Positions 7,874 through 34,942 of a stretch of 40,690 bases of DNA are shown here, piece by piece (within the stretch, counting starts at the first letter, position 1; each line of letters opens with the position of its first letter). The stretch lies in assembly GCF_003334335.1 (NCBI RefSeq), contig NZ_QOWQ01000038.1; one strand, written 5' to 3'. The notes beneath the pieces are model-generated. The model was given only the letters and a program-made list of their open reading frames with translations, did not search any database and was not told where the DNA came from. The DNA is from Escherichia coli (GTDB taxonomy: Bacteria > Pseudomonadota > Gammaproteobacteria > Enterobacterales > Enterobacteriaceae). Position numbers and translations under genes: made by a program.

Positions 7874-9196
7874 TTATTTGTCGAACAGATAATGGTTTAC
7901 CAGATTTTCCAGTTGTTCCTGGCGACCACTCTGATGCACCGGAGACAAATGATGTTCCTGAGCATATTTGGCTAAATCTGCCAGTGACATTTGGCCTTTC
8001 AGGATTTGCTGGCCCAATTCGCTATTCCAGCCGGAATAACGCTGCGCGATGCGTTTATCCAGCTCGCCATCTTCAATCATGCGCGCTGCAATTTTCAGCG
8101 CCAGTGCCATCGTATCCATCGCGCCGATATGACCGTAAAACAGATCATATTTATCAGTACTTTGACGACGTACTTTGGCATCGAAGTTCAGACCACCGGT
8201 GGTGAAACCGCCTGCTTTGAGAATTTCATACATCACCAGCGCATTCTCTTCCACACTGTTCGGGAACTGGTCGGTGTCCCAGCCCAGTTGCGCATCGCCA
8301 CGGTTGGCGTCGACAGAACCGAACAGGCCAAGCGCAATGGCGGTGGCTATTTCATGATGGAAAGAGTGACCTGCCAGCGTCGCGTGGTTAGCTTCAATGT
8401 TCAGTTTAATCTCTTTTTCCAGACCAAACTGTTTCAGGAAGCCATAGACCGTCGCGGCATCGTAATCATATTGATGTTTGGTCGGTTCTTGCGGTTTCGG
8501 TTCGATAAGCAACGTGCCCTGGAAACCGATTTTATGTTTATGCTCAACCACCATCTGCATAAAGCGGCCCAGTTGTTCACGCTCCTGACGCAAGTCGGTA
8601 TTTAACAGCGTTTCGTAACCTTCACGACCGCCCCACAGGACATAGTTTTCACCGCCCAATTTATGGGTTGCTTCCATCGCTGTAACAACTTGCGTTGCCG
8701 CCCAGCTGAAGACTTCAGGATCTGGGTTCGTCGCCGCACCCGCGCCGTAGCGAGGGTTTGTAAAGCAGTTGGCGGTTCCCCACAGCAGCTTCACGCCGCT
8801 CTCTTCTTGCTTGCCTGCCAGGACATCAACCATTTGCGCAAAATTATTGATGTACTCTTTTAACGACGCGCCCTCAGGGGAAACATCCACATCGTGGAAG
8901 CAATAAAATGGCACATGTAACTTGTGGAAAAACTCAAATGCGACATCTGCTTTACGCTTCGCCAACGCCAGTGCCTCACCAGGCTGCTGCCACGGACGAT
9001 TAAACGCCCCCACACCAAACATATCCGCCCCGTTCCAGCAGAAGGTGTGCCAGTAGCAGGCGGCAAAACGCAAGTGCTCTTCCATACGCTTACCCAACAC
9101 CAGTTCGTCGGGATTGTAGTGACGGAATGCTAACGGGTTTGAGGATTTTGAGCCTTCATAACGAACGCGATCGAGCTGGTCAAAATAGGCTTGCAT
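7874..9196 (-). CDS. xylA: Xylose isomerase
   Basis: ORF-track frame 7874..9208. Start placed at the ATG giving [16 protein letters not shown]... (440 aa), preceded by a GGAG Shine-Dalgarno. Confidence 0.95.
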
Positions 9197-9208
9197 ATTG
9201 AACTCCAT

Positions 9209-27670: not shown

Positions 27671-28523
27671 TCATCCGTTAGGGATTTATGAAAAAGCGCT
27701 GGCGAAAGATCTCTCCTGGCCGGAGCGGCTGGTGCTGGCAAAAAGCTGCGGTTTTGATTTTGTCGAAATGTCGGTGGATGAAACCGACGAACGGCTCTCA
27801 CGTCTTGACTGGAGCGCCGCACAAAGGACTTCGCTGGTTGCCGCGATGATCGAAACAGGTGTTGGGATCCCGTCGATGTGCCTGTCCGCACATCGTCGCT
27901 TTCCCTTTGGTAGCCGTGACGAGGCAGTGCGCGAACGGGCGCGGGAAATCATGAGTAAAGCGATTCGCCTGGCGCGCGATCTCGGCATTCGCACCATCCA
28001 GCTGGCAGGTTATGACGTCTATTACGAAGACCACGACGAAGGCACCCGGCAACGTTTTGCTGAAGGGCTGGCGTGGGCAGTCGAACAGGCGGCGGCATCA
28101 CAAGTAATGCTGGCGGTGGAGATTATGGATACCGCGTTTATGAACTCCATCAGCAAATGGAAAAAATGGGACGAGATGCTCGCCTCACCGTGGTTCACCG
28201 TCTACCCGGACGTCGGCAACCTCAGCGCCTGGGGCAATGATGTTCCCGCCGAACTGAAACTGGGCATTGACCGTATCGCCGCGATCCACCTGAAAGACAC
28301 CCAGCCAGTCACCGGGCAAAGTCCCGGACAGTTCCGCGACGTGCCGTTTGGCGAAGGCTGCGTCGATTTCGTTGGCATCTTCAAAACGCTGCATAAACTG
28401 AACTATCGCGGTTCTTTCCTGATTGAGATGTGGACCGAAAAAGCCAAAGAGCCGGTGCTGGAGATTATTCAGGCGCGGCGTTGGATTGAAGCGCGTATGC
28501 AGGAGGCTGGATTTATATGTTAG
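27663..28523 (+). CDS. sgbU: L-xylulose-5-phosphate 3-epimerase (UlaE paralog)
   Basis: ORF-track frame 27573..28523. Start placed at GTG 27663 ([13 protein letters not shown]...), giving 286 aa, overlapping the sgbH stop by 8 nt. Confidence 0.88.
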
Positions 28524-29212
28524 AGCAACTGAAAGCCGACGTGCTGGCGGCGAATCTGGCGCTTCCCGCTCACCATCTGGTGACGTTCACCTGGGGCAAT
28601 GTCAGCGCGGTAGACGAAACGCGGCAATGGATGGTAATCAAACCTTCCGGCGTCGAGTACGACGTGATGACCGCCGACGATATGGTGGTGGTTGAGATAG
28701 CCAGCGGTAAGGTGGTGGAAGGCAGCAAAAAACCCTCTTCCGATACACCAACGCATCTGGCGCTCTACCGTCGCTATGCCGAAATTGGCGGTATTGTGCA
28801 TACCCACTCGCGCCACGCCACCATCTGGTCACAGGCCGGGCTGGATCTCCCCGCCTGGGGCACCACCCACGCCGATTATTTTTACGGTGCCATCCCCTGC
28901 ACGCGACAGATGACCGCAGAGGAGATTAACGGCGAATATGAATATCAGACCGGCGAAGTGATCATTGAAACCTTCGAAGAACGTGGCAGGAGTCCGGCAC
29001 AAATCCCGGCGGTGCTGGTGCATTCTCACGGCCCGTTCGCATGGGGTAAAAACGCCGCCGATGCCGTGCATAACGCCGTAGTACTCGAAGAATGCGCCTA
29101 TATGGGTCTATTCTCGCGCCAGCTTGCGCCGCAGCTCCCTGCGATGCAAAACGAACTGCTGGATAAGCACTACCTGCGTAAGCATGGGGCCAATGCCTAT
29201 TACGGGCAGTAA
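28517..29212 (+). CDS. sgbE: L-ribulose-5-phosphate 4-epimerase (AraD/UlaF paralog)
   Basis: 231-aa class II aldolase/epimerase. Overlaps the sgbU stop by 7 nt. Confidence 0.93.
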
Positions 29213-29220
29213 TCCCTCAC

Positions 29221-29242
29221 GCCGGGGCTTCATCGCCCCGGC
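29221..29242 (+). terminator. Operon-end hairpin after sgbE
   Basis: Perfect 8-bp GC stem gccggggc-ttcatc-gccccggc, 9 nt after the sgbE stop. Not followed by a strong U-tract. Confidence 0.45.
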
Positions 29243-29558
29243 ACTACGAATTGATATGTTCCTTGCTGTAACGCCGCTTCCACGCTGCTGGCGTTAAACC
29301 AGTATGTTTCTGAAAAATCTGCCGGAAATAGCCAACGTCATTAAACCGTATTGCATGGAGCAGGCCGACAACGTCGAGTCACTGCATAACCTGTTGCTGC
29401 CCGCCGATGCGCCATTTACGACATTTGAAGGCAAGGGATTGTTCAGCCATAAGATCCTGATTCAGACGCCAGGTTCCCGGTATGAACAGAGCAATCCAGA
29501 GCAACAACCTTTGTGGCATTACGACGGAGCACCAGCCGCACCGACATCCACCGGTGAA

Positions 29559-30299
29559 TTAAAAACGCCAGCTCACCCCGGTGACAAAGGTAAAACTCTC
29601 ATTACGATCAATCATCGGGCTGTCGGTAATCTCTTCCGGCAGCTCGCTGTATCCTGCGCTCGCCATCAATACGACGTGCTCTCCTATCGGGTATTTTGCC
29701 GTCAGGCTGACATAGGGCACCCAGGCATCCTGCGCGGAATAACTTGCCAGACCGCTACGACGGGACTCACTCTCTGAAATGCCATAGTAATAGTCACTGA
29801 AATTCTCGTCATAATAGAGAACGCCCAGCGCAGGTGTCAGCGACAGACGACCTATCTGCATTTTGTGGAATACCGATAGCTCCCCCACCCAGCCGTTGCT
29901 GTTATCCAGAACGTCCGCAGCTGCAGAGGCTTTCACGGTTCCCCAACGCTCGTGGTGATACCAGGCAACCCCCGCCATAGCCGTACTATCACGCTTATCA
30001 AGCTGTTGCATGGCATAATCGTCATTATCGGTAGGGTCAAATTCCAGCGGCATCCAGGATGCGGTCAGGCTAAGTTCATTTTTTTCACTTTGCGACAGAA
30101 TAAAACCTAACGTGGTCTGACGAACATAAAAAGTATCACCTTCATAACTAATCAGCGGAATTGCCTTCGTATTTTCATTATAACCGCGATAAGGCGATTC
30201 ATTATAAGCCGCACCAGCACCAATGGATAATTCAGAAGCAGTTGCGCTTGCCATAAAAGGCAACGCAAATAACGCCACAATATTGCGATTAATTAACAT
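29559..30299 (-). CDS. yiaT: MipA/OmpV-family outer membrane protein
   Basis: 246 aa, signal peptide (MLINRNIVALFALPFMASA), beta-barrel-like alternating pattern, C-terminal aromatic residue (..SWRF). Confidence 0.88.
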   Translation of the reverse strand: MLINRNIVALFALPFMASATASELSIGAGAAYNESPYRGYNENTKAIPLISYEGDTFYVRQTTLGFILSQSEKNELSLTASWMPLEFDPTDNDDYAMQQLDKRDSTAMAGVAWYHHERWGTVKASAAADVLDNSNGWVGELSVFHKMQIGRLSLTPALGVLYYDENFSDYYYGISESESRRSGLASYSAQDAWVPYVSLTAKYPIGEHVVLMASAGYSELPEEITDSPMIDRNESFTFVTGVSWRF

Positions 30300-30422
30300 G
30301 TCCGGTATTCCATTTTAAAATAAGATAAAAAAGAGTCGGCATAATAATGCTTACAATTTCTCCGGTGCAAGATTCATATTTATATAGTAATATATAAAAT
30401 TATATATAATTGGGCTGTTGCG

Positions 30423-31397
30423 ATGACAAAATTACAACTTAAGTACCGGGAGTTAAAAATTATCTCGGTAATCGCTGCCAGTGAAAATATCAGCCATGCC
30501 GCGACTGTACTTGGCATCGCACAGGCCAACGTCAGCAAATATCTTGCTGATTTTGAATCAAAAGTGGGTTTAAAAGTCTTTGACCGAACCACCCGGCAGC
30601 TGATGCTCACACCTTTTGGCACCGCGCTGTTACCGTACATCAACGACATGCTGGACAGAAACGAGCAACTTAATAATTTTATTGCAGATTATAAGCATGA
30701 GAAACGTGGTCGGGTCACCATCTACGCCCCAACCGGCATAATTACCTATTTATCCAAACATGTAATCGATAAAATTAAAGATATCGGTGATATCACCTTA
30801 TCGCTAAAAACCTGCAATCTTGAGCGTAATGCCTTTTATGAAGGCGTCGAATTTCCTGATGATTGTGATGTTTTAATCAGCTACGCTCCACCAAAAGATG
30901 AATCGCTGGTTGCCAGTTTTATTACCCAATATGCCGTAACCGCTTATGCCAGCCAGCGCTATCTTGAGAAACATCCCATTAGCCGTCCTGACGAACTCGA
31001 ACATCACTCCTGTATTTTGATCGACTCGATGATGATCGACGACGCGAATATCTGGCGCTTCAACGTCGCCGGGAGTAAAGAGGTGCGGGATTATCGCGTG
31101 AAGGGAAATTACGTTTGCGACAACACGCAATCTGCGCTGGAGCTGGCACGAAATCACCTGGGGATTGTGTTTGCGCCAGACAAAAGTGTGCAGAGCGACC
31201 TGCAAGACGGCACGCTGGTGCCCTGCTTTCAGCAACCCTATGAATGGTGGCTGGATCTGGTGGCTATCTTCCGTAAACGGGAATACCAGCCCTGGCGGGT
31301 CCAGTATGTGCTGGATGAAATGCTGCGTGAAATTCGCCACCAGCTTGCTCAGTCGCAGCAACTGCGGCCTGAACAAGCGGCGGAAAGCGAAGATTAA
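30423..31397 (+). CDS. yiaU: LysR-type transcriptional regulator
   Basis: 324 aa, N-terminal LysR HTH ([28 protein letters not shown]). Divergent from yiaT. Stop codon overlaps the yiaV stop. Confidence 0.9.
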
Positions 31398-32530
31398 TGA
31401 TCGAGATAAAGGTAATGCACCCAGCTGTTCATGCGTAATAGCACTTTGCGCATCACCGAGACATGGCTGAAATGATCAGAGTAAACCGCCACCTGGGCGT
31501 AAATACCGTCTGGTAAAGCGCTCAAATCAGTGTGCTCATCCAGTTCAATGGTCGCGATAACGCCATCTGAACCCGGCGCTGTGTTTAACGTCTGTAAGGT
31601 GCCGGTCGACTGATAAGCTCCGCCGGGAACGGCTGGACTAATGGCTGCCAGCTTACCGCTGAATACCTTACCTGGCAGAGCATTAAACACCACTTCCGCA
31701 TCGTCGCCAGGAGCCAGTCGCAGCAAGGAGTTCTGACGGAACTGCGCCACGATTTGTCGTTTCTGATCGGGTATAAACACCATCACCGGACGTAGCGGCA
31801 GCGACGCGGCATAGGTACCCGGACGAATCAGTACCTGGGTCACATAACCATCGCTCGGCGCACGCACTATCGTCTGCTCAAGGTTATATTTTGCTTCCGC
31901 GAGCTGTGCTTTCAGGCTGGCGATTTGAGAATGTTCACCCAACACCAGGCTATCCAGCTGGCTCTGGATCTGTTTTTGTTCCGCCGCCGATGACTTCACG
32001 GAGGCTTCCTGCGCCAGATAATTTTGCCGCGCCACATCGATATCGCGTTCTGAAAACGGGTTTACTTTCGCCTGGCTGCCACGTGCGTAACGCTGATACT
32101 CTTTAGCGAATTTATCCCGCGTGGCCTTTGCCTGCTGAGTATTCGCCGCCATCTCATCTAACTCTGCGCCCAACGCCCGCTGTTTATGTTCTGCGGTAAC
32201 GATATCCGCCATCAGCCGATCCACCCGCGCCTGATAACGCGTCGGGTCCAGTCGAAATAGCACCTCACCTTTTTTAATCAGCGTATTTTTCTTATCCGTC
32301 ACTTCAATCACCACACCAGTCACCTGTGGGACAACAGGAATAGAAATAACCGCTTTTTGCGCTTTAAAGGTATACGGATGGTTATAGTTCATTAACAGAA
32401 TTAGACCGCTGACAATAAATATTCCACCCAGGGCCGCTGTGGGAATGGTCCATTTATTTACGGGAATTTTGAAGATCTTAAACATTGCCCATGCAAAAGC
32501 CACATAGGTCAAAATAATCAGTAAATCCAT
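31394..32530 (-). CDS. yiaV: HlyD/EmrA-family membrane fusion (periplasmic adaptor) protein
   Basis: 378 aa: N-terminal TM helix, long coiled-coil segment ([32 protein letters not shown]...), C-terminal beta domain. Confidence 0.9.
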
Positions 32531-32535
32531 AAGTA

Positions 32536-32859
32536 TTACTCGGCAGAAGAGGATTTGATGTCGGCGAGCTGTTTCTCCAGCCCGGCAATGCGCTGTTGCA
32601 GTTGCATAACGGATGAATCATGGCTTTGCATTCCCCATCCCCGCTCCGGGCGGTAAAGCGTGGCCCAAATCCACAAAAACGGCCAGATAACATGTAACGT
32701 AAAAAGACTCACCCAACCAGCAACATGAATGGCGTCGGCATGAGGATGATTACGTTTTTTGGCAATCAGGTAGGGAATATCATGTAAAATAATGATCCCA
32801 TAGAAGATCACCAGAAATACAAAAATAAGCACTCCCAGTGCAAAATAGTCCAGGAACAT
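32536..32859 (-). CDS. yiaW: Small inner membrane protein (DUF3302), YiaW
   Basis: ORF-track frame 32536..32889. Start placed at the internal ATG ([10 protein letters not shown]...) preceded by a GAGGG Shine-Dalgarno, giving 107 aa. Lies 5 nt upstream of yiaV. Confidence 0.8.
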
Positions 32860-33041
32860 ATTTCCCTCAAAGAATATAAAAAAGAACAATTAACGCATAT
32901 TATGAAATGCCATGATGCAGTGCAATTTCCTTATTTATATAACGACATATTGTTTTTTATATACTTTCTTAAATGTGCTGTCTGGTTTTTCAACAGGACG
33001 AGGTTTATCATATTGAAATAGTGGAACTATTGGCCAAACTA

Positions 33042-33185
33042 ATGAATAACTCCAGTAAAACATCCACAGTACAGATTAAGCGTATTAAACCTTCAATTAT
33101 CTACCGTTTATTGCTGATTGGCCTCGGATCACCAATGGTGATTTACGGCCTGGTTCGCCCGCTCACCATCGAAACGCGAGATTAA
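33042..33185 (+). other. Candidate small ORF (47 aa from ATG 33042, 70 aa from ATG 32973) with one hydrophobic helix; unverified
   Basis: MNNSSKTSTVQIKRIKPSIIYRLLLIGLGSPMVIYGLVRPLTIETRD. No convincing Shine-Dalgarno upstream of any in-frame start. Confidence 0.2.
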
Positions 33186-33290
33186 ACTCCTGACAAAACA
33201 CGCCCCAGAAACGTACTTCTGTTGGCGTAGTCTGGGTTATTGCGCACGTAGGTTTAAAACGTAAATTGTAACAACGTGCGCTTTGTTTAT

Positions 33291-33372
33291 GCCGGATGCG
33301 GCGTGTACGCCTTATCCGGCCTACGGTCAGGTTCCCGTAGGCATGATAAGACGCGTAAGCGTCGCATCAGGC
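33291..33372. repeat. BIME: two inverted REP elements downstream of aldB
   Basis: gccggatgcggcgtgtacgccttatccggcctac (33291-33324) and gtaggcatgataagacgcgtaagcgtcgcatcaggc (33337-33372). Confidence 0.65.
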
Positions 33373-33403
33373 AATGAATACCCAATGCGACCAGCTTCTT
33401 ATA

Positions 33404-34942
33404 TCAGAACAGCCCCAACGGTTTATCCGAGTAGCTCACCAGCAGGCACTTGGTTTGCTGGTAATGCTCCAGCATCATCTTGTGGGTTTCGCGACCGATA
33501 CCTGATTGTTTGTAGCCACCAAACGCCGCATGTGCCGGGTAAGCGTGATAACAGTTGGTCCACACGCGCCCAGCCTGTATGCCGCGCCCCATCTTATAGG
33601 CCAGATTACCGTTGCGGCTCCAGACGCCCGCGCCCAGGCCATATTGCGTATCGTTCGCCAGCTCCAGCGCTTCTTCCATCGTTTTGAAGGTGGTCACCGC
33701 CAGCACCGGGCCAAAAATCTCCTCCTGGAACACCCGCATATTGTTCTGACCAAACAGAATCGTCGGTTCGAGGTAGTAGCCGTCTTTCAGTTCACCTTCC
33801 AGCAGCTTGCGCCGCCCGCCTGTGAGCACGTCAGCGCCCTCTTTTTTACCGATATCAATGTAGTTGAGGATGGTTTCCAGTTGCCCGTGAGAAACCTGCG
33901 CGCCCATTTGCGTCACGCTGTCGAGCGGGTTACCGCTACGAATGCTTTCGACACGGCGGATGGCGCGTTCCATAAAGCGTTCGTAGATAGATTCCTGCAC
34001 TAAAGCACGACTCGGACAGGTGCAAACTTCGCCCTGGTTAAAGGCAAACAGTGCAAAGCCTTCCAGCGCTTTATCGAAAAAGGCATCTTCTTCATCCATC
34101 ACATCAGCAAAGAAGATATTTGGCGACTTACCGCCCAACTCCAGCGTCACCGGAATAATGTTTTGCGTTGCGTATTGCATAATTTGTTGGCCCACTTCCG
34201 TTGAGCCGGTAAACGCCACTTTGGCGATGCGTTTCGAGGTCGCCAGATATTCGCCAATTACCCCACCTGCGCCATTGACCACGTTCACCACGCCCGGCGG
34301 CAGTAAATCACCGACAATTTCCATTAGCAGCAGTACAGAAAGCGGGGTAAGACGTGCGGGTTTCAGCACCACACAGTTGCCCGCCGCCAGCGCGGGAGCC
34401 ATTTTCCAGCTCGCCATCAGCAGCGGGAAGTTCCACGGGATAATCTGCCCCACCACGCCTAACGGTTCATGGAAATGATAGGCCACGGTTTCGCTATCAA
34501 CTTCACTGATCCCACCTTCCTGCGCCCGAATACACGAGGCGAAATAGCGGAAATGGTCAATCGCCAGCGGTACATCCGCAGCACTGGTTTCGCGAATGGG
34601 TTTGCCGTTATCCCAGGTTTCAGCTGTCGCTAACAGCTCGAGGTTTTGTTCCATTCGATCGGCAATCTTAAACAGAATCGCCGCACGATCCTGCACCGAG
34701 GTGTGCGCCCATTTATCTTTCACTTTGTGCGCAGCATCCAGCGCCAGATCGATGTCTCGTTTGCCCGAAGACGCCACTTCGCACAGCAGCTGCCCGGTCA
34801 CCGGCGTCAGATTCTGGTAATACTCGCCGTCGGCAGGGGCTACCCATTCGCCGCCAATAAAGTTGTCATAGCGGGCTTTTAACTTGAGGGGGAAACCATA
34901 CTCGCCGGGCTTAATCTGTGCTGAAGGGGGATTATTGGTCAT
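33404..34942 (-). CDS. aldB: Aldehyde dehydrogenase B (NADP-dependent)
   Basis: ORF-track frame 33404..35080. Start placed at the ATG giving [22 protein letters not shown]... (512 aa). Confidence 0.93.

Follow-up and report, generated by a model that had tools for sequence, protein, structure and literature searches.

The sgbE-yiaT gap of Escherichia coli K-12, very probably a deletion scar holding the pseudogene fragments ysaC and ysaD

The gap between the convergent genes sgbE and yiaT in Escherichia coli K-12 is, with a probability of about 95%, a deletion scar that holds fragments of two genes, ysaC and ysaD. The DNA analysed here, referred to as the window, is a stretch of 40,690 nucleotides from E. 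coli (NCBI RefSeq assembly GCF_003334335.1, contig NZ_QOWQ01000038.1), and its positions 28000-31000 are an exact substring of the K-12 MG1655 chromosome (NC_000913.3), where the genome coordinate equals the window coordinate plus 3,721,569. The initial annotation of the window gave the size of the gap correctly as 346 bp (29213-29558), since sgbE ends at 29212 and the stop codon of yiaT begins at 29559. It also described the gap as free of annotated genes, which is not the case, as NC_000913.3 lists the pseudogenes ysaC (b4648) and ysaD (b4649) there. The fragments described below are the same objects, identical in sequence and coordinates to those of MG1655. PGAP has called the same two partial coding sequences independently in K-12-like genomes, where they are worded 'AraC family transcriptional regulator, missing N-terminus' and 'hypothetical protein, missing N- and C-terminus'. 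The content of the gap is thus already known in the form of two catalogued pseudogene fragments, and the finding is an ordinary one because the reference genome already annotates both. What is added beyond NC_000913.3, which carries no product text for them, is the identity of the parent genes, the breakpoints and sizes of the deletions, and the population and cross-genus context.

Three possibilities had been raised for the gap, a small RNA derived from a 3' untranslated region, an antisense small RNA and a decayed gene remnant. The last of these is borne out by two fragments and two deletions, and the two small-RNA options received no computed support. A comparison for an intact gene at the same position in other Escherichia was also proposed, and it gave a positive result in strains EC71 and XH988 among others. 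No result is at odds with the gap being a deletion scar. The features of the region, to which sgbU also belongs as a neighbour gene on the + strand, are as follows.

28517-29212, + strand: sgbE, with its stop codon at 29210-29212.
29221-29242, no strand: perfect 8-bp, GC-rich hairpin between the sgbE stop (29210-29212) and the ysaC stop (29244-29246).
29244-29347 by homology (annotated as 29244-29345), - strand: ysaC (b4648), the last 33 codons and stop codon of an AraC-family regulator gene.
29304-29777, + strand: chimeric open reading frame, with codons 1-15 antisense to ysaC, codons 16-78 in the ysaD frame, then a 21-bp spacer and 72 codons antisense to yiaT.
29347/29348, no strand: junction of deletion 1, with 4,021 bp missing; blunt, without microhomology.
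29348-29537 (annotated as 29349-29540), + strand: ysaD (b4649), a 190-nt internal piece of a GH127 glycoside hydrolase gene.
29532-29537, no strand: junction of deletion 2, with 216 bp lost between two (G)CCAGCC copies, of which one remains.
29538-29558, no strand: original spacer, 21 bp directly downstream of the yiaT stop, retained and collinear with intact strains.
29559-30299, - strand: yiaT, with its stop codon beginning at 29559.
30423-31397, + strand: yiaU.

E. coli EC71 and XH988 possess the full layout from which these fragments can be understood. In both strains sgbE is followed by an araC-family gene in the opposite orientation, then by genes for an MFS transporter and a GH127 protein that both point forward, and then by yiaT in the reverse and yiaU in the forward orientation; the intact proteins of EC71 are WP_000891841.1, WP_000204827.1 and WP_001026898.1. 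The intact E. coli cassette occupies the same position between sgbE and yiaT, and the K-12 fragments are collinear with both of its ends. In a scan with one genome per species, the three-gene cassette was found in 67 of the 80 best loci, and the six-gene order (sgbE, araC-like gene, MFS gene, GH127 gene, yiaT, yiaU) in 13 of the 80, which belong to Citrobacter, Enterobacter, Lelliottia, Huaxiibacter and Pseudocitrobacter. The occurrence of the cassette and of the six-gene order across other genera indicates that the intact layout is ancestral and that of K-12 derived. The ancestral enterobacterial arrangement would accordingly have consisted of sgbE, an AraC-family regulator gene facing it, an MFS transporter gene of the GPH family and a GH127 gene reading toward yiaT, and yiaT itself convergent with the GH127 gene.

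The transporter passes the GPH-family symporter model TIGR00792 with 332.6 bits against a cut-off of 231. The intact hydrolase matches two solved structures, 4qjy, a GH127 beta-L-arabinofuranosidase (E = 9e-233), and 3wkw, described as 'Non-reducing end beta-L-arabinofuranosidase' (E = 2e-149), the latter being Bifidobacterium longum HypBA1. For the intact hydrolase the best NCBIfam equivalog is aceric acid hydrolase, whose cut-off of 950 is not reached by the score of 453. From the model and structure matches, the lost unit is a cassette of regulator, transporter and hydrolase. Alignment of the intact E. coli protein with the 4qjy and 3wkw enzymes extends from end to end, and the protein has all three Pfam GH127 domains, whereas what is left in K-12 amounts to about 63 residues of the C-terminal one. 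Judged by family membership alone, the substrate of the lost cassette was probably beta-L-arabinofuranosides of the plant glycan type.

When the window is compared with intact loci by blastn, three collinear blocks of homology are found, between which 4,021 bp and 216 bp are missing. The first block (29100-29347) corresponds to positions 8951-9198 of the locus of strain AGR4587 (L003) with 96.8% identity and covers the end of sgbE, the hairpin and the final 104 nt of the regulator gene. Deletion 1 follows directly, with breakpoints at 9198/9199 and 13219/13220 in L003 and at 7979/7980 and 12000/12001 in an O145 strain (L002). With it went ~712 bp from the start of the regulator gene, the divergent promoter region, the entire MFS/GPH transporter gene and 1,673 bp from the start of the GH127 gene. 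The two breakpoint sequences have no bases in common. Deletion 2 took the final 108 nt of the GH127 gene, stop codon included, together with two REP-like palindromes of the GH127-yiaT spacer. Beyond it, window positions 29532-29700 match L002 12401-12569 with 99.4% identity, a segment that consists of the 27 nt downstream of yiaT and yiaT itself.

The blocks of homology and the breakpoints are read directly from these alignments, and from them we infer the order and mechanism of the two deletions. In the K-12 lineage a single illegitimate, blunt deletion of 4,021 bp would have brought the terminal 104 nt of the regulator gene up against an interior position of the GH127 gene. A further deletion, of 216 bp and apparently mediated by microhomology, would then have removed the 3' end of the GH127 gene and the REP elements. 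ysaC and ysaD would have been left as non-functional fragments that subsequently drifted neutrally. Compared with the intact cassette, K-12 retains only the last 33 residues of the regulator, no transporter and no catalytic domain, and losses of 4,021 and 216 bp leave fragments that are incapable of the function of the cassette.

The direction of change could also be the reverse, with the K-12 arrangement ancestral and the AraC-MFS-GH127 cassette inserted between sgbE and yiaT in other strains. Variable presence of the cassette among E. coli strains and the character of the locus as a rearrangement hotspot would agree with such a history, but K-12 carries truncated, in-frame pieces of the two outer genes of the cassette. 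Both breakpoints of deletion 1 lie within coding sequence and truncate it, a pattern that deletion produces and insertion cannot, and insertion was rejected on this ground. The full six-gene synteny in several other genera points the same way, as do junctions that lack mobile-element ends and target duplications; at 29347/29348 no target-site duplications or mobile-element ends were seen. Insertion of the cassette in other strains is vanishingly unlikely.

Intact strains possess REP-like palindromes, which recall REP/BIME elements, in the GH127-yiaT spacer, whereas the K-12 gap has none because deletion 2 removed them. Two such palindromes are found in the intact spacer (L006 7300-7375), and the REP consensus pattern GATGCGRCGY..RCGYCTTATC fits the palindrome deleted from K-12 as well. 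The consensus has no match in the gap, and an exact search of the window with the REP-like palindrome of intact strains returned 0 matches at up to 3 mismatches. The sole match to the consensus in the window is at 33345-33368, where the palindrome GATGCGACGCTTACGCGTCTTATC lies on the - strand downstream of yiaW.

The translation of ysaC (29345-29244, - strand) is FNDVGYFRQIFQKHTGLTPAAWKRRYSKEHINS, followed by the stop codon, and 32 of its 33 residues match the intact 271-aa regulator, the single difference being R>Q. At the DNA level ysaC is 96.6-96.8% identical to the intact gene and is collinear with sgbE. AraC-family models match the intact regulator over residues 38-268, and 104 nt of the gene are retained in K-12, preceded in that frame by a stop codon and unrelated sequence. 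ysaC is thus a pseudogene remnant of the AraC-family regulator gene, as homology at the same chromosomal position indicates. Function is ruled out by truncation, because the fragment has neither the N-terminal ligand/dimerisation domain nor a complete pair of HTH motifs. Four substitutions in ysaC, at 29301, 29304 and 29310-29311, are specific to the K-12 type when it is compared with intact strains and with two other scar-bearing strains; one of the four changes a GTG to the ATG with which the ORF at 29304-29777 opens.

The second fragment, ysaD, comprises 63-64 codons that align with residues ~558-621 of the 656-aa GH127 protein. It is 88-90.5% identical in DNA sequence to intact E. coli alleles, without indels, and adjoins yiaT as the intact gene does; 55-57 of the 63-64 residues of its translation match the intact alleles. 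In the intact protein the catalytic domain PF07944 occupies residues 12-427, a middle domain residues 438-532 and the C-terminal domain PF20737 residues 534-649. ysaD falls wholly inside PF20737 and is for that reason a piece of the C-terminal domain alone, and the catalytic domain PF07944 is absent from the K-12 remnant, having been deleted.

The 190-nt remnant was set against the alleles of Escherichia sp. E1V33 and E. whittamii and five intact alleles of E. coli. K-12 has eight private substitutions in it. Six of the eight alter the protein (L>M, G>V, W>L, A>T, Y>S and S>G), and they strike residues that do not vary among these Escherichia alleles. Of 25 differences that separate intact E. 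coli alleles from that of E. whittamii, only about 4 are nonsynonymous, and a binomial estimate from this proportion gives P ~3e-4 for at least six nonsynonymous changes in eight. The observed six in eight is about the 3:1 ratio expected without selection and fits neutral decay. Taken together with the loss of the catalytic domain, the pattern marks ysaD as a fragment of a GH127 gene under relaxed constraint and not a functional enzyme.

Private decay accounts for only part of the divergence of ysaD. The remnant differs by 10-13% from every intact allele found, as against 1.3-3.7% in the flanks, and most of the 10-15 other differences that set it apart from intact E. coli alleles are synonymous, several of them shared with E. 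whittamii and E1V33. Synonymous states shared with E. whittamii and E1V33 (L012, L013, 7674-7863) and not with intact E. coli include 29360G, 29457C, 29462T, 29468G and 29511T. These shared states and the high divergence indicate that ysaD derives from a deep or foreign allele. An intact copy of the source allele was not found, either in a scan of genome contigs with the intact GH127 gene or in a protein search; a word-indexed protein search with the 64-aa ysaD translation returned only 10 short E. coli ORF calls and no full-length GH127 protein, and is thus uninformative about where the allele came from. The nearest matches outside E. coli, with 89.3% over 178 nt in Escherichia sp. E1V33 and 86.8% in E. 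whittamii, are no closer to the remnant than the E. coli alleles are. The origin of the allele is a small point and does not challenge the deletion scar.

The open reading frame at 29304-29777 that the initial annotation noted exists as described, with 157 codons, an ATG start and a course antisense into yiaT. The frame reads through into yiaT antisense because deletion 2 removed the GH127 stop codon. Read directly from the sequence, no Shine-Dalgarno motif precedes the start, and the 157-aa product has no NCBIfam match. The start codon is ATG in the K-12 type and GTG in intact strains and in the two other scar-bearing strains, and the ATG at 29304 is a substitution of the K-12 lineage. Database proteins from this frame (P0001 'ybl149', 93 aa; P0002; P0005) have differing, frameshifted C-termini. 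Given its chimeric make-up, the lack of a Shine-Dalgarno motif and a family match, the K-12-lineage ATG and the frameshifted database versions, the ORF is best regarded as a chimeric read-through artefact of the deletions and not as a gene.

It is conceivable that the ORF, or one of its shorter annotated versions such as 'ybl149', is a real protein-coding gene born from pseudogene fragments, as the frame stays open over 157 codons in two diverged scar-bearing strains and short proteins (P0001, P0002 and P0005) have been annotated from it in some genomes. The database versions, however, are frameshifted, which is unlike a conserved protein, and the ORF is not treated as a gene in either RefSeq annotation. 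Both ends of the ORF run antisense, the N-terminal one to ysaC and the last 72 codons to yiaT, which itself constrains the frame there. The sole homologous part is a stretch of 63 residues of the GH127 C-terminal domain in which the private changes are mostly nonsynonymous. With no family match, no Shine-Dalgarno motif and an ATG derived from GTG besides, a newly born gene is extremely unlikely, and the artefact remains the preferred account of this frame.

The hairpin reported immediately after sgbE is real, with GCCGGGGC (29221-29228) pairing with GCCCCGGC (29235-29242) around a 6-nt loop. In a 61-nt context its folding energy is -21.2 kcal/mol on the + strand and -25.1 kcal/mol on the - strand (z = -2.75 and -3.49, respectively, against dinucleotide shuffles). 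A GC-rich hairpin between convergent stop codons is a feature that it shares with the intrinsic terminators found between convergent E. coli genes, but the K-12 hairpin is not followed by a U-tract on either strand, and a terminator scan did not call it an intrinsic terminator. The hairpin is identical or changed by a single base in strains with an intact regulator gene, and hairpins located 3' of sgbE in other genera are unrelated to it (in a cross-genus survey in which the E. coli loci were mis-anchored). It is an old convergent-gene hairpin that has been retained, and it may serve at most as a 3'-end stabiliser or weak terminator.

The initial annotation saw no strong promoter or terminator pairing in the gap, and a scan agrees, finding no promoter-like site inside the gap and two weak terminator-like sites (+ strand, 29286-29304; - strand, 29336-29321), compared with 1.0 +/- 1.0 in shuffled sequences. 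An Rfam 15 scan of 28800-30000 with a lenient E-value threshold returned nothing above noise; its matches, at E = 0.27 and 3.5, fall far short of the gathering scores, and the best of them (E = 0.27) is a CRISPR-repeat model on the hairpin. With the hairpin left out, the remaining 29243-29558 shows no excess structure, its folding energy being the same as in shuffles (z = +0.09 for the + strand and +0.46 for the - strand). Literature found in searches on ysaC/ysaD and on yiaT/sgbE with small RNA describes no small RNA at the locus. YiaU has been reported to regulate yiaT, whose expression rises when yiaU is deleted (PMC9068703), and this is the only regulatory information found for the neighbourhood.

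These results bear on the idea that the gap encodes a functional small RNA, either derived from the 3' untranslated region of the sgbE transcript (yiaK-S operon) or antisense to the 3' end of yiaT. The stable hairpin after the sgbE stop, the two weak terminator-like sites and the invariance of the 190-nt remnant among sampled scar-bearing genomes could be taken in its favour. Against them stand a strong hairpin without a U-tract, terminator-like sites that are not enriched over shuffles, the lack of a promoter-like site, folding energies indistinguishable from shuffles, Rfam matches no better than noise and the silence of the literature found. The invariance of ysaD is not significant when set against that of yiaT (0/190 versus 8/~490 differences in the two diverged scar-bearing strains), the scar sequence is missing from more than half of the complete E. 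coli genomes, and the sequence is fully explained as fragments of coding genes with a neutral substitution pattern. A functional small RNA in the gap is very unlikely.

There is likewise a very low probability that the scar has been co-opted, in that sgbE and yiaT transcripts overlap across 29243-29558, or a chimeric 157-aa product is made, with an effect on the expression of yiaT or yiaK-S. Transcript overlap would be permitted because the REP elements and the GH127 stop codon are gone. Were co-option real, it would represent a K-12-lineage-specific antisense or 3' untranslated region interaction, or a coding novelty arising from pseudogene debris. As a deletion scar, the gap would now provide the convergent transcripts of sgbE and yiaT with no more than a passive 3' untranslated spacer.

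The distribution of the scar was assessed by megablast of window positions 29150-29650 against 5,426 complete E. coli genomes, with the scar defined as a match in one place over at least 80% of the query. By this definition 2,461 of the genomes (45%) carry the scar; in many of the others the left part (sgbE and the AraC-family gene) and the right part (the GH127 gene and yiaT) are separated. Copies of the remnant with at least 99% identity were counted in 2,459 genomes and intact-type GH127 alleles, which are 80-95% identical to it, in 2,167; about 800 complete E. coli genomes have no GH127 sequence. A complete E. coli genome nearly always has at most one place that matches the 190-nt ysaD/GH127 query. 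In two diverged scar-bearing strains sgbE and ysaC differ by 5-7% from K-12 and ysaD is identical, a combination consistent with recombination of the flanks around what would be a single old scar. The contrast between ysaD and yiaT in these two strains (0/190 and 8/~490 differences) carries no statistical weight.

The interval between sgbE and aldB (window 29213-33900) is a multi-allelic hotspot in E. coli. The yiaTUVW genes are present in K-12 and EC71 and are replaced by a hicAB toxin-antitoxin pair in AGR6137 (L008 7364-7976). AGR4587 (L003) has the cassette and lacks yiaTUVW, and PBP5 has neither. MLI105 has lost yiaTUVW beside an IS1A element, which also truncates ysaD at nt 101 (L011 1617-2314). 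The O145 strain (L002) possesses the cassette, has a deletion of yiaK-sgbE and retains a remnant of an IclR gene of the yiaJ type. A Fic-family gene between aldB and yiaY (L002 17919-19214, L003 15343-16638, L004 7756-9051) is not found in K-12 or EC71, and AGR4587 has a DUF4862 gene between yiaL and yiaM (L003 1582-2502). PGAP places a 47-aa hypothetical protein, WP_001066080.1, between yiaW and aldB (L006 10911-11054, also L007 and L011), where NC_000913.3 has no feature.

Outside the Enterobacterales label, contig CACSKA010000004.1 (L032), labelled Chryseobacterium sp. 18061, carries an enterobacterial AraC-MFS-GH127 locus. It resembles that of Citrobacter sp. 18056 from the same project, with similar per-gene identities and coordinates, and this close likeness suggests that the Chryseobacterium label reflects mislabelling or contamination. 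Several Bradyrhizobium contigs (L082-L088) have a 71%-identical GH127 gene, and a homologue of the regulator or transporter was not detected in the flanks that were fetched. In E. coli isolated from patients with IBD, epithelial invasiveness was found to co-segregate with carriage of a GH127-family gene (PMC11879602), and it is only possible that this gene is the one located between sgbE and yiaT.

The assignment of the gap to pseudogene fragments, and not to a hidden gene or small RNA, removes a false lead, which is of small weight for biology. In the MG1655 reporter strain RB290 a cassette was inserted precisely at the ysaC/ysaD boundary (PMC12361893). An insertion exactly between the two fragments indicates that the site is already in use as an integration locus (PMC12361893), and the anatomy of the scar supports using this boundary as a neutral site for integration. 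The conserved enterobacterial cassette of regulator, transporter and GH127 hydrolase has been lost from laboratory K-12 and from about 45% of complete E. coli genomes, and this loss is relevant where K-12 serves as a model for carbohydrate foraging in the gut.
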